Positions 1 to 64,000 of a DNA stretch of 64,000 nt are shown one piece after another. Both the position numbers and the translations under genes were made by a program. The DNA is from an uncultured Candidatus Peribacteria bacterium. Lineage in GTDB: Bacteria; Patescibacteriota; Gracilibacteria; Absconditabacterales; Absconditicoccaceae. The first letter of the stretch is position 1; every line of letters starts with the position of its first letter. Location of the stretch: positions 5,587-69,586 of the forward strand of contig CAYXBC010000024.1 in assembly GCA_964463255.1 (NCBI GenBank), given 5' to 3'. A model generated the notes under the pieces. It searched no databases. It worked only from the letters and a program-made list of their open reading frames with translations, and was not told the origin of the DNA.

Positions 1-569
1 ATATGTATCTTAGTAAGCACTTTCTCTATCTGTTCATGTAATTCTTCGATAGTACCATTATTGGTCAATCTATAGTCAGCGAGGGCAATGCAGGCACCTA
101 CATTCTGTTTGTTTGGGTCGGTATTGGTCATCTCCCTTTGTTCATTCATAATGAATTCCTGGTATCCGACGTGGTCAGTCTCGCTCCCTCTTTCCATTAT
201 CCTCTCATATCTTATCTTGGGATCTGCATCGATGGCTAGGAGGGTAAAATCACCATTCTCCTGAGCTGCTTTGGCTTTGAGTGCTTGCACTTCCCCGGGA
301 TTTCTTATGCTTTCTATGATTGCGTGTCTTCCACCTGATCTTGCTTGTTCGTAGAGTTGTTCAACGATATAGGAAGATCCATGCTCGGCACGTAGTTCGT
401 TGCCTACATGGACCATAGCATCTCTATTGATTGGCATCCCTTGCTTCTCTATCTCCTCAATCAGGAATGCCCTCACGGAATAATGAATGAATCCCTTGTG
501 CTGGACGAGATATTCGACGATAGTCCCTTTACCCGCACCGAGCGTTCACGTGATTCAGACAATAATCAT
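1..569 (-). CDS. P-loop nucleotide/nucleoside kinase-like protein (3' end runs off the window)
   Basis: ATG at 569-567. The N-terminus MIIVGITGTLGAGKGT is a Walker A loop only if the in-frame TGAs at 555-557 and 546-548 are read as Gly. The frame stays open to position 1. Confidence 0.8.
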
Positions 570-717
570 GCCACATACATTTTTACATGGTAAATGAGCG
601 TATCGTAGTAGGTATAGCGATTTAGGTCCTAGAGTAAACCATATTTTTGCGTTTGAAAAAGACTCTACAGTCAGTATATAGTATATATCTTATGCCTTTT
701 ATCTTTTCGTCTTATCT

Positions 718-1611
718 ATGCGAGCACAGCTCCAGAAATACTATACCGACAAATGATTTTTCCGAAGAAGTATCATTGCGATTGTTCTTGTTCTTATCAT
801 CATTTTCCTCATGAGTGGTTCACAATGAAGGGCAAATATCGCAACAAGCCAGGTACTCTCGTTTGCAGGTGAAACGATGCCCATAGGAGGGAGATATCAG
901 ATGAATATCGAAAGATTTGATAGGGAGGTTGCTTTGCTTGAAATCAACGCAGCCCAATTTATTATGATCTATAAAAGATGGAATCTGATTATCCCAATGA
1001 TAGAAAAACAATTGAAGAAGGCAGGTCTCCCTGATGACTTCAAATATATCCCGATCATTGAAAGTGCGCTGAGGGAGAATGTATCTAGTTCTGCCGGGGC
1101 TGCATGATTGTGGCAATTGATGCCAGCAACTGCCCAAAGATACGGAGTGATCGTTACTAGTGGGGTAGATGAGAGATACGATGTCGCTAAGTCTACGGCG
1201 GCGGCCATCGATCATCTCAAAGGGCTGAGTTCGATTTTCAAGCAACATACCCTTGTCGCCGCCGCCTACAACAGAGGCGCTGCAGGATTACAATCAGCTA
1301 TGAAGAGTCAATGAACCGATAATTTCTACGACCTGCGGATGAATAATGAGACCTCGAGATATATCTTCAGATTGCTTGCTATGAAATATGTATGGGAGCA
1401 TAAGAATGATTTCTTCGACCGCGATAGTCTTGGCGATATGTACCGTCCTTTCGTCACTAGAAATATCAGCGAAAAGAATATTCCTGATCTCGTGGCTCGG
1501 GCCACAGCCCATGATGCGAGCTATTATGAGGTAAAGAAACTAAACCCTCGGATTATGAGTAATTCCTTGCCTGAAGGAAAGTGGAATATCGAGCTGTTTG
1601 AAAAGAAATAA
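718..1611 (+). CDS. membrane-anchored lytic murein transglycosylase (SLT domain, MltD-like)
   Basis: ATG 718 follows an in-frame TAG at 679. N-terminal TM helix IIAIVLVLIIIFLM. SLT motif ES..SSAGAA-G-LWQLMPATAQRYG, where the G is TGA 1105-1107. In-frame TGAs at 754, 826, 1105 and 1312. TAA stop at 1609. Confidence 0.85.
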
Positions 1612-1793
1612 ATAACTTCATCATATGGAAAGGTGGAGAATGACTAATGACGAATCCCTGAGACTATTGTCATCCTGAATCCCGCCTTGTGGGACAAGTT
1701 CCATGAAAGATATACGTAATATTACTCTATCCTTCGACACTGCTCAGGATGACAGAGAGGAGAAATATAAAAATCAGGCAATTATTATATATT

Positions 1794-1827
1794 GTAAAAA
1801 AAGAGCTGATGATGGCTCTTTTTTTCT
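1794..1827. terminator. bidirectional rho-independent terminator between convergent genes
   Basis: An A-run, the stem AGAGC / GCTCT with an 8-nt loop, then a T-run. It lies between the transglycosylase stop (1611) and the efp stop (1845). Confidence 0.55.
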
Positions 1828-1844
1828 TTATATACATAGCGTGA

Positions 1845-2396
1845 TTAGTTGGTCTCTCCGGTAATGGTATTGAGTGTTACGGTATCGCCTTCGTTCTTAT
1901 GAAGCGGGATCATAATTTCCATGCCGGTTTCTATCGTCGCCGGTTTCTTGCCTGCTTGTGCCCTATCACCTTTCACTCCTGGAACGGTTGAAGCAATCTT
2001 GTAAGAAACGGTCGGAGGCAATATGACGCTTATCACATTCCCCTTGTAGACCATCACGAAACAGTCCATATTCTCTTTGAGATATCCTGTGATATCGTCG
2101 ACCATGGATTTGTTGAGATCATACATTTCCCCGGTATCGTTTTCCATAAAGGTATAAGTATCTCCTGCAGTATACAAGAAGACTGCATTTTTAGTAGTTA
2201 CATCTCCCTTTTCCAGAACGGTTCCTGATTTGTAGGTAAATGTCTGCACACCTCCGGTGATAAGATTTTTCATTTTATAACTATAGCTTCCTTGTCTTTG
2301 CTGCATCTGCATAAAAGAAAAATCCACTACTTTGAATAACTGACCATCGATTTCGAGGATAGTATTCTTCTTGATTTCTGATACATCTAACTTCAT
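1845..2396 (-). CDS. efp: elongation factor P
   Basis: Intact 183-aa ORF, MKLDVSEIKKNTILEIDGQLFKVVDF..., with typical EF-P length and N-terminal KOW-like sequence. No internal TGA. Confidence 0.95.
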   Translation of the reverse strand: MKLDVSEIKKNTILEIDGQLFKVVDFSFMQMQQRQGSYSYKMKNLITGGVQTFTYKSGTVLEKGDVTTKNAVFLYTAGDTYTFMENDTGEMYDLNKSMVDDITGYLKENMDCFVMVYKGNVISVILPPTVSYKIASTVPGVKGDRAQAGKKPATIETGMEIMIPLHKNEGDTVTLNTITGETN

Positions 2397-2460
2397 GATT
2401 CCACGATTAATCTATTAAAATATTTAGTCTGATATACTTTTTACGATTTTTCTCATCGTA

Positions 2461-62842: not shown

Positions 62843-62904
62843 TAGTTCTTTAAATATAAATTAAATGATTATGTGATTACGGATTGGAGATTTGGTTAAA
62901 TAGT

Positions 62905-63330
62905 TTATTTCTTGCCCTTTTTCTTACCTTTATTTTCTTTGACCTTACCTGCTTCCTTATCAAGGAGGTTGATGTCTCTCTTTTCAGCAGTAATCTTGGA
63001 TTTGAATCTAGCATCCTTTCCTACTTTATCTCTGATATAGTAGAGTTTAGCTCTTCTAACCTGATATTCATCCAAAAGGATAATTTTATCAAACTGATTG
63101 AATGATAGTGGGTAGATTTTTTCTACTTCCACTCCAGCGACCATACCTCTTACCGTGAAAGATCAATCAGCATGACTAGGTTTCTTGACCTTGATCACGA
63201 GACATTTAAATCTTCGGATTCTGCTGGTCTCTACATCCTTTTCATGGATTTCTACCGACATTCCTGCTTTGATATCAAGAATCTTCGCTCCATTATTGTC
63301 ATAGAAATGTTTGAGTCTTTCGAAATTCAT
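62905..63330 (-). CDS. rplS: 50S ribosomal protein L19
   Basis: ...SFTVRGMVAGVEVEKIYPLSF...RRAKLYYIRDKVGKDARF. ATG 63330. One in-frame TGA at 63145-63147. Confidence 0.9.
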
Positions 63331-63428
63331 CTTATTTTTTTAAATATAAATTAAATGATTACTTGATTACGGATTTTTTTAATTCGAAATTTACAATTTC
63401 TTAATAAATTAATCATTAGTGAAATGAG

Positions 63429-63572
63429 TTATTTAGCTTTTTTGTTCATGACTTTGGCCTTTCGTTTCTTCTGTTGTTCGAGGTTTTTTCTGACATCCAT
63501 AATTACTACTTTTTCTACTCTAAATAACGCCTTATTGAGTTTTCTTTTTGCGTTGGTTTTTAATCTGGTCAT
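63429..63572 (-). CDS. hypothetical small basic protein (47 aa)
   Basis: Internal Met of ORF 63429..63632. Lys/Arg-rich and unassigned. Confidence 0.35.
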   Translation of the reverse strand: MTRLKTNAKRKLNKALFRVEKVVIMDVRKNLEQQKKRKAKVMNKKAK

Positions 63573-63635
63573 GTATGAATAGTAAATAATGATAAATGAT
63601 ATGTAGGTGCAAAGAGTATATGCTTTCTGCAAATA

Positions 63636-63884
63636 TTATTTCTTGACTCCTTTCTTTTCCAAAGCCGCATCGATCATTTTCTGGGTAACTCCGTACTTTT
63701 TGAGTCTTGCCTGAGCTCTTTCCTTGGTCTTATAGATCCATTTGGTTTCGCCTTGATCAGCCTCTTTCTTCATAAGATTTACATATCGATTTATCGCTTT
63801 CTCAAGTTTCCTGCCTGATTTTTGGCTTACCCGAGAGACGTTGTACATCATATGCTTATATTTCGCACCACTGGTATTTCCCAT
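63636..63884 (-). CDS. hypothetical small basic protein (82 aa)
   Basis: ORF bounded by TAA on both sides, with no motif recognised. Confidence 0.45.
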   Translation of the reverse strand: MGNTSGAKYKHMMYNVSRVSQKSGRKLEKAINRYVNLMKKEADQGETKWIYKTKERAQARLKKYGVTQKMIDAALEKKGVKK

Positions 63885-63934
63885 TTTCTTAGTAATAAAG
63901 AGGATAAATCATGTAAACGATTATGTAGTTATGT

Positions 63935-64000
63935 CTAGTTAACGTATTTTGCCATATATGCGAATGCTTTATTTGCTTCCGCCATTTTATGAGTTTCTTC
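63935..64000 (-). CDS. 3' end of an unidentified gene (partial)
   Basis: The frame is open from the window edge to TAG 63935-63937 (...EETHKMAEANKAFAYMAKYVN). Confidence 0.3.
   Translation of the reverse strand, partial: EETHKMAEANKAFAYMAKYVN

Follow-up and report, generated by a model that had tools for sequence, protein, structure and literature searches.

The 64,000-nt stretch of DNA analysed here (the window; G000:C24:5587-69586, GC content 38.8%) is very probably read with the variant genetic code of the Absconditabacteria, in which UGA encodes glycine, CGA and CGG encode tryptophan, and all other codons keep their standard meaning. This reading is drawn from sequence comparisons. The phenomenon is already published and not new: Shulgina & Eddy (eLife 2021, PMC8629427) used Codetta to predict UGA as Gly and CGA and CGG as Trp in Absconditabacteria, and a 2026 NAR paper (PMC13092985) takes the code as given. 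The assembly that contains the window comprises 1.285 Mb in 71 contigs and is 91% complete. Relatives of its topA, 79-88% identical, bear the titles "candidate division SR1 bacterium" or "Candidatus Absconditabacterales bacterium", and some carry the generic label "Peribacteria". By these relatives the lineage is SR1/Absconditabacterales, as an earlier note on the window, made from the sequence alone, had proposed.

Reading frames and gene ends

No open frame of the window exceeds 393 codons under table 11; with TGA as a sense codon the maximum grows to 3415 codons. It stays at 393 codons when TAA or TAG is made sense, so the joining of frames is specific to TGA and not a trivial effect of removing a stop. 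The fragmentation of the standard-code open reading frame (ORF) track, which the earlier note had described, is thereby confirmed. In-frame TGA occurs in 32 of the 33 called window genes of at least 100 aa, including all large ones, and amounts to 417 of the 18,958 codons of the window. Pfam domains run across these codons at essentially full profile length (CorA 7-292/292, HlyIII 4-224/224, Topoisom_bac 2-361/411); further domains spanning TGAs are Peptidase_S8, SecD, ArgRS, TyrRS, A2M and those of the penicillin-binding protein (PBP).

The called ORFs end at TAA (794) or TAG (258). Among the gene/homologue pairs that reach the C-terminus of the homologue, 194 of 227 end at TAA or TAG no more than 10 residues away from it, in agreement with the earlier observation that genes close with these two codons. 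At the expected gene end, TGA occurs no more often than chance would give (4 of 28 long cases).

Codon identities at conserved positions

The meaning of the codons was read from a masked genome-wide comparison. In 1052 TAA/TAG-bounded ORFs (366,516 codons), TGA, CGA and CGG were masked as X, and the translations were aligned by BLASTP to the six-frame ORFs of two complete standard-code genomes of the Candidate Phyla Radiation (CPR), G042 and G024, each of 800 kb and from families other than that of the window. Columns were counted where both references agree. TGA columns hold glycine in 515 of 602 cases (86%) and tryptophan in none. The glycine codons themselves, taken as controls, reach 88% (GGA, 953/1081), 84% (GGT), 85% (GGC) and 87% (GGG). 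The claim that TGA is glycine, with tables 4 and 11 rejected, is thus upheld.

CGA columns hold tryptophan in 40 of 72 cases (56%) and arginine in two (3%); CGG columns hold tryptophan in 21 of 48 (44%) and arginine in six (12%). For TGG the corresponding values are 50 of 85 (59%) and two (about 2%). The columns of CGT (93/122), CGC, AGA (659/852) and AGG are 76-84% arginine, and each of the remaining 59 sense codons has its standard residue on top. Because the top residue at CGA and CGG is tryptophan, plain table 25 is not an accurate description of the code of this genome. The "code 25" of the earlier note holds for UGA and fails where it keeps CGA and CGG as arginine, since both sit on tryptophan.

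Comparisons of individual families lead to the same assignments. Eleven conserved gene families (rpoB, rpoC, EF-G, EF-Tu and others) were set against the rpoB-centred regions of 20 CPR genomes, and glycine occupies 42 of the 49 conserved TGA columns. The topA gene was compared with 17 SR1/Absconditabacterales relatives (79-88% identity) and 23 standard-code homologues. At all 13 of its TGA columns, the 17 relatives use GGN or TGA, and glycine is the top residue at five of the six that align well with the standard-code homologues, which bears out the check on topA proposed earlier. The single CGG of topA (27713-27715, aa 91), in the motif DREGEAIgW91H, falls on a residue that is Trp in 21 of the 23 standard-code homologues; across 18 SR1-group sequences (the 17 relatives and this genome), the column is spelled CGA twelve times and CGG six times. 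Columns of topA using TGG, CGA or CGG interchange among these three codons only. Likewise, in a 951-aa ValRS-like protein from 26 members of the genus, CGA and CGG alternate with TGG or with codons for aromatic residues, never with AGA or CGT.

The same pattern is seen in well-known motifs of the window. The CGG at 9314-9316 of the tyrosyl-tRNA synthetase gene (aa 234, GNAVW234) falls on the conserved Trp in the GGAVWLD of TyrRS proteins with solved structures. Further CGA or CGG codons lie in Trp motifs of the PBP (DNWVIGF and IGIWIGN), CorA, HlyIII and TopA, and several of these positions are catalytic or structural.

Profile scores can be compared between codes. Code 25 gives higher Pfam scores than code 4 in most cases, for example for the PBP transpeptidase domain (46.6 to 76.8 bits) and Toprim_C_rpt (122.9 to 139.8 bits); those of CorA, TyrRS and Toprim are essentially equal. 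All tested domains that contain CGA or CGG gain bits when, in addition to code 25, CGA and CGG are read as tryptophan. In the order code 4, code 25 and corrected code, the scores are 178.4, 178.8 and 187.4 bits for CorA, 121.1, 127.2 and 138.5 for HlyIII, and 73.9, 73.0 and 76.3 for Toprim. From code 25 to the corrected code, TyrRS rises from 208.6 to 212.4 bits, Transgly from 162.3 to 164.8 and Transpeptidase from 76.8 to 79.3, and the transpeptidase match then reaches profile position 283 instead of 249.

Codon usage and composition complete this picture. TGA makes up 2.05% of codons genome-wide and about 30% of glycine codons; the glycine share of residues is 6.85% with TGA and 4.8% without it. 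The window contains 149 CGA/CGG codons beside 144 TGG, so that about 51% of its Trp codons, and 56% genome-wide, are of the new type. The earlier statement that conserved Trp positions use TGG is therefore half true, as CGA and CGG also sit on conserved Trp. The tryptophan share of residues is 1.32% with CGA/CGG and 0.58% without them. Per 10,000 ORF codons, CGA, CGG and TGG occur 44, 29 and 58 times, and in aligned regions 31, 17 and 32 times.

A selective shift of tryptophan from UGG to CGA and CGG, avoiding misreading of UGG by tRNA-Gly(UCA), was also considered. The share of CGA/CGG among Trp codons is 61 of 111 (55%) in conserved columns, 56% in the genome and 10 of 20 (50%) in the eleven conserved families. 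As the new codons are not enriched at conserved Trp, this simple test lends the idea no support.

Release factors and decoding tRNAs

A single class-I release factor is encoded in the genome (C17:6936-7997(-)). It scores above the cut-off for prfA (434 bits) and below that for prfB (241 vs 370 bits), and it carries the PAT motif of release factor 1 (RF1). The gene contains eight TGA codons, and its universal GGQ motif is spelled TGA-TGA-CAA, which amounts, as far as sequence can speak, to a compact internal proof that UGA is glycine. The second RF-1-domain match is the small ArfB-like protein of the window (20248-20625(-)). No prfB, the gene of release factor 2 (RF2), scores above the cut-off in any of the 30 genus genomes, a set with two members of 99% completeness; the absence that the earlier note had asked about is thus confirmed. 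Since RF2 is missing, nothing terminates at UGA, and RF1 serves UAA and UAG.

UGA would instead be read by a tRNA-Gly whose anticodon is UCA and which bears glycine identity elements. Such a tRNA-Gly(UCA), 74 nt long and nearly invariant, was found by pattern search in 22 of the 29 congeners (the genus set without this genome), with the sequence GCGGATATGATG...CTTCAGC...TATCCGCT. It has the anticodon loop CUUCAGC, the acceptor pairs G1:C72, C2:G71 and G3:C70, and U73; these four features are the glycine identity rules of Shulgina & Eddy (PMC8629427). The decoder is thus shown for the genus and predicted for this genome.

Two further tRNAs, parsed by hand, would account for the CGA and CGG codons. 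The tRNA(UCG) (C59:11741-11811(-)) has G1:U72, U20 and G73, and the tRNA(CCG) (C23:11707-11777(-)) has A1:U72, U20 and G73. The N:U pair at 1:72 and G73 resemble tRNA-Trp(CCA), and both tRNAs carry the features of the provisional Trp-acceptor rule of Shulgina & Eddy (G73 and no A20, with A/G1:U72 as support). By contrast, tRNA-Arg(GCG) and tRNA-Arg(CCU), parsed in the same way, have A20 and A73. Having lost the arginine determinant A20 and bearing G73 and the N:U pair, tRNA(UCG) and tRNA(CCG) would be charged by the tryptophanyl-tRNA synthetase (TrpRS) rather than by ArgRS. Arginine would then be left to CGU and CGC, read by the tRNA with anticodon GCG, and to AGA and AGG.

Two candidates for a UGA decoder within this assembly were rejected. 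A relaxed ARAGORN match, "tRNA-Gly(tca)" at C12:14995-15089, is 95 nt long and of poor structure. The other, a tRNA-like gene at C54:55996-56071(-) (locus L146:1682-1757), lies between rpsT and tRNA-Thr(UGU), is a tandem duplicate of the latter and is present only in this genome and the congener G137. ARAGORN reports it as "?(Glu|Gly)(tc)" with a two-base anticodon, and its loop contains CUUCAGC. Its anticodon arm is a 7-bp hairpin with a 4-nt UUCA loop (a 3-nt UAA loop in the G137 copy), and its acceptor is without glycine identity. Two anticodon-arm pairs differ between the two copies with pairing kept, and two acceptor pairs are changed on both sides relative to tRNA-Thr. This duplicate is probably decaying; alternatively, the gene may yield a tRNA-like RNA without decoding function.

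Residual arginine signal and rival readings

Several points weigh against the Absconditabacteria code as the code of the window. Eight conserved CGA/CGG columns align with arginine in the outside genomes (CGG 6/48, CGA 2/72). The gene calls are simple ORFs bounded by TAA or TAG, and the bin has a contamination of 5.55%. The charging of tRNA(UCG), tRNA(CCG) and tRNA(UCA) is a prediction from identity elements. Moreover, neither ARAGORN nor Rfam (38-39 tRNAs) found a canonical tRNA-Gly(UCA) in this 91%-complete assembly, so the search suggested earlier found no such gene here; in the genus it is conserved. As tRNA-Ala and tRNA-Tyr are also missing, the tRNA set of the assembly is incomplete. The flanks of the congener gene match the terminal few hundred bases of C56 and C41, contigs that end at the syntenic site (at 11718 and 11599, respectively), and the gene is therefore placed in an assembly gap. 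For this genome, the tRNA-Gly(UCA) argument rests on the congeners and on this synteny.

The arginine-aligned columns have been followed further. Seven of the eight lie in genes with 4 to 22 TGA and are thus native; contamination was rejected as their source on these grounds. Congener codons were checked for one of the eight, a CGG in the TIxPET motif of the ValRS-like protein. It is TGG in 12 congeners and CGA or CGG in six, so the clade has tryptophan there and the difference is a lineage substitution. The eighth column is a CGA in an ABC ATPase gene on C28, where the ABC signature SGGQRQR has its invariant Arg. This gene belongs to an island of six genes (C28:43009-47760; an ABC permease, the ABC ATPase and others), five of which are without TGA, and it has no orthologue in the 29 congeners. 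The absence from the congeners favours a recent, simply mistranslated import, and the island looks like one from a standard-code donor, which the host would mistranslate.

Genes of at least 200 aa without any TGA number 39 of 677, against 4.5 expected. Their causes are mixed: codon bias in highly expressed genes such as enolase, foreign-looking contigs such as C70, and imports. Enolase has no TGA, and its CGA sits on a conserved Trp, so that it uses the same code. The window is not affected by these cases, and all of its large genes contain TGA. Together with the C28 island and the six arginine-aligned CGG columns, the 39 genes could indicate that a minority of genes is written for the standard code and that some CGA and CGG are "meant" as arginine. 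This is unlikely. A conserved "standard-code block" was rejected because the sole clear block, the C28 island, is without orthologue in the 29 congeners. If the idea were true and such genes were functional, rather than fresh imports, contaminants or products of biased expression, SR1 cells would tolerate or exploit a second dialect.

A related possibility is ambiguous or context-dependent decoding, in which CGG, perhaps also CGA, is partly read as arginine, or UGA still stops some genes. The excess of arginine in conserved CGG columns (12%, against 2 of 85 for TGG) and the surplus of TGA-free genes speak for it. It is nevertheless very unlikely, given that the only tRNAs able to read CGA and CGG appear to be of the Trp type, that the tested arginine-aligned CGG is TGG in congeners, and that TGA-free enolase has its CGA on a conserved Trp. 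Other TGA-free genes lie on foreign-looking contigs or on the island missing from the congeners. A residual stop function of UGA does not fit with C-termini that match TAA or TAG and with TGA at expected ends at chance level.

Plain NCBI table 25, with UGA as glycine and CGA and CGG left as arginine, is highly improbable. Its UGA part is fully supported, and the eight arginine-aligned columns agree with its other part. However, the masked columns place CGA and CGG near TGG, the congeners swap them only with TGG or aromatic codons, the tRNAs that decode them are without A20 and with G73, and the Pfam scores rise once they are read as tryptophan.

Table 4, the code of mycoplasmas and some endosymbionts with UGA as tryptophan, opens the frames equally well, as any sense meaning of TGA joins the ORFs. 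It is practically excluded by the complete lack of Trp among the 602 conserved TGA columns, 515 of which are Gly, by the swaps of TGA with GGN in congeners, by Pfam scores that are mostly lower and in a few cases unchanged, and by the glycine identity elements of the tRNA(UCA) of the genus. The standard code, with in-frame TGAs explained by pseudogenes, sequencing errors or selenocysteine, has nothing but the default status of table 11 in its favour and a negligible chance of being correct in view of the abundance of TGA in genome and window, the several TGAs in each of the essential genes rpoB, rpoC, prfA, topA and those of the aminoacyl-tRNA synthetases, the TGAs at homologous columns in relatives, and the missing RF2.

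Gene content of the window

The features of the window are listed in Table 1. The peptides quoted in the earlier note are found with TGA at the places given there, including two topoisomerase peptides (27482-27514(-) and 27122-27163(-)). In the Walker A motif, the TGAs at 555-557 and 546-548 are confirmed; a TGA inside TLGAG is not, as that G is an ordinary codon. The TGA in VRVSgDRQ of the recombinase is probably not at an invariant-glycine site, as serine recombinases usually have S or T at VRVS-x. Read with code 25, the window contains ORFs of 1204, 1522, 2120 and 3403 aa. Three of these sizes agree with the earlier ones; the 1470 aa given for the S8 subtilase ORF do not, as this ORF (12291-16859(-)) has 1522 aa when counted from its first ATG. 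This ATG overlaps argS, which makes a later start, giving 1470 aa, plausible.

Table 1. Features of the window, with positions in the window; w and g mark residues encoded by CGA/CGG and TGA.
Feature	Position	Strand	Basis
AAA_17/AAA_18 nucleotide-kinase-like gene	3..569	-	Pfam; 3' end beyond window
P-loop of nucleotide-kinase-like gene, V-g-IT-g-TLGAGKGT	TGA 555-557 and 546-548	-	translation
SLT lytic transglycosylase, 4 TGA, 5 CGA/CGG	718..1611	+	Pfam SLT 79.3 bits
AGAAgLWQLMP in SLT gene	TGA 1105-1107	+	translation
1204-aa ORF, family unknown, 13 TGA, 23 CGA/CGG, 15 TGG	2461..6075	-	ORF call, Pfam scan
SecD, 4 TGA, 1 CGA	6160..7899	-	Pfam SecDF_P1_head, SecD_SecF_C
Hemolysin-III family protein, 4 TGA, 3 CGA/CGG	8059..8715	-	Pfam HlyIII
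CGG in HGIwHLFVLAGS motif of HlyIII protein	8122-8124	-	translation
Tyrosyl-tRNA synthetase, 3 TGA, 2 CGG	8762..10015	-	Pfam; solved-structure alignments
S8 subtilase-family surface protein, 72 TGA, 10 CGA/CGG	12291..16859	-	Pfam Peptidase_S8 170.4 bits
Arginyl-tRNA synthetase (argS), 5 TGA, 5 CGA/CGG	16756..18654	-	Pfam
Stand-alone RF-1-domain (ArfB-like) protein, no in-frame stop, not RF2	20248..20625	-	profile match
CorA, 2 TGA, 2 CGG	23130..24053	+	Pfam CorA
CGG in CorA NIDwIHL	23163-23165	+	translation
CorA ALTgVLTLISGIYGMN	23895-23942	+	translation
DNA topoisomerase I (topA), 13 TGA, 1 CGG	25538..27985	-	relatives and homologue alignments
Alpha-2-macroglobulin homologue, 2120 aa, 34 TGA, 18 CGA/CGG	28281..34643	+	Pfam MG2, A2M_BRD, bMG10, A2M
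Class A PBP, 16 TGA, 8 CGA/CGG	34647..36713	+	Pfam Transpeptidase
PBP QgASTIPSQ	34992-35018	+	translation
PBP CGG on aromatic motifs	36273-36275 (DNwVIGF), 36312-36314 (IGIwIGN)	+	translation
3403-aa surface protein (leucine-rich, beta-helix and Ig-like repeats), 105 TGA, 29 CGA/CGG	36927..47138	+	ORF and Pfam
Rep_1	48507-49427		
Reverse transcriptase, 9 TGA, 4 CGA/CGG	54492..55721	-	Pfam RVT_1
Reverse transcriptase RPGKgTHHA motif with TGA	55380-55406	-	translation
Large serine recombinase, 15 TGA, 5 CGA/CGG	60167..61927	+	Pfam Resolvase, Zn_ribbon_recom
VRVSgDRQ in serine recombinase	60302-60325	+	translation
tRNA-Lys(UUU), sole tRNA in window	61831..61906	-	ARAGORN; Rfam RF00005
Ribosomal protein L28	61952..62140	-	translation
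L28 MARVCDFTgRgTQSGN: FTgRgTQSGN, N-terminal motif, two TGA at conserved Gly positions	62093-62122	-	

The stretch from about 48.5 to 62 kb encodes Rep_1, an AAA ATPase, the reverse transcriptase (RT), a VWA protein and the serine recombinase, every large gene there contains TGA, and the whole looks like an integrated element. The RT (54492-55721(-)) has the sequence LPLgNLTSQIFANIY, an instance of the (I/L)GxxxSQ motif that is typical of the RTs of diversity-generating retroelements (DGRs). At its 3' end, the plus-strand frame of the recombinase covers the entire tRNA-Lys(UUU) gene in antisense. A plus-strand ORF of 277 aa (61932-62765(+)) overlaps the L28 gene (61952-62140(-)); this ORF probably has a spurious 5' part or a start further downstream.

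Beyond SR1, the nearest homologues of TopA are found in Bacteroidales and Flavobacteriales (51-58% identity vs about 44% for other CPR), and this similarity suggests that the clade may have acquired its topA from Bacteroidota. A topA match with two in-frame TGA was also found at locus L042, in a metagenome-assembled genome labelled Candidatus Kaiserbacteria, despite a label that implies a standard-code lineage; the bin may be mislabelled, or the TGAs may be a frame artefact of the match.

Composition of the bin

The bin is probably a mix of two related strains or species. The locus tRNA-Met, tRNA-Gln, trpS occurs twice (G000 C39:1-1420 vs C54:56790-58205; 82% identity in DNA, 85% in protein), and C57 and C63 each carry a tRNA-Phe and a tRNA-Ile. 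The idea of an additional TrpRS reserved for the new tRNAs was rejected, because the trpS copies share 85% identity and the same tRNA neighbours; they most likely represent two strains in the bin and not paralogues.

In-frame TGA is rare or absent on contigs C70, C50, C58, C43, C40 and C22, which are likely foreign DNA in the bin. C70 has none at all and encodes a protein with a C-terminal secretion tail of the Bacteroidota type. At the end of contig C63 (8328-8443), the Nextera adapter CTGTCTCTTATACACATCT has been left untrimmed after a truncated tRNA.

Implications and comparison with known codes

The code matters in practice more than as a concept: table 11 breaks the window into fragments, and table 25, which pipelines choose for this lineage, writes arginine where the cell almost certainly inserts tryptophan. 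The latter error concerns 149 of the 18,958 codons of the window (about 0.8%) and about 2,700 codons genome-wide, more than half of the Trp positions, and it distorts motif recognition, structure prediction and homology scores. Annotations of the window that assume plain code 25 (the DGR, the mobile element, the pair of alpha-2-macroglobulin and PBP, and the recombinase over tRNA-Lys) should be re-read with CGA and CGG as tryptophan, as should the template and target codons of the RT.

None of the NCBI tables offered by the tools covers UGA as glycine together with CGA and CGG as tryptophan. Table 25, the SR1 and Gracilibacteria code, reportedly goes back to Campbell et al. 2013 and Rinke et al. 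2013. The genome shares with it the glycine meaning of UGA, the lack of RF2, the tRNA-Gly(UCA) in the clade and TAA and TAG as the only stops; it differs in CGA and CGG, which are arginine in table 25 and tryptophan here. Table 4, as used by Mycoplasmatales and several insect endosymbionts, likewise combines a sense UGA and the loss of RF2 with a small genome of low GC. In contrast to table 4, UGA stands for glycine and not tryptophan (0/602), and the tRNA(UCA) is a predicted glycine acceptor.

The closest match is the Absconditabacteria code of Shulgina & Eddy (PMC8629427), with which the three reassignments, the lineage and the low GC agree. The GC content of 0.388 coincides with or slightly exceeds the top of the range of 0.26-0.38 in that paper. 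The tRNA sets are also alike, with tRNA-Arg(GCG) for CGU and CGC and with tRNA(UCG) and tRNA(CCG) bearing G73 and no A20; tRNA(ACG) was not found in this genome, as in the published set. A comparable change from arginine to tryptophan through a tRNA(CCG) of altered identity is known from Anaerococcus and the RFN20 Bacilli (PMC8629427). Those bacteria are without tRNA(UCG) and have reassigned CGG only, whereas this genome has a tRNA(UCG) and has reassigned CGA as well, the commoner of the two codons. CGA and CGG are much commoner here than in most species of the published survey, and codon usage resembles that of its sole "advanced" assembly, GCA_002791215.1 (CGA 30, CGG 24, TGG 35). The genome thus represents a further case of the "advanced" stage of the takeover from arginine to tryptophan, in which CGA and CGG together now outnumber UGG.

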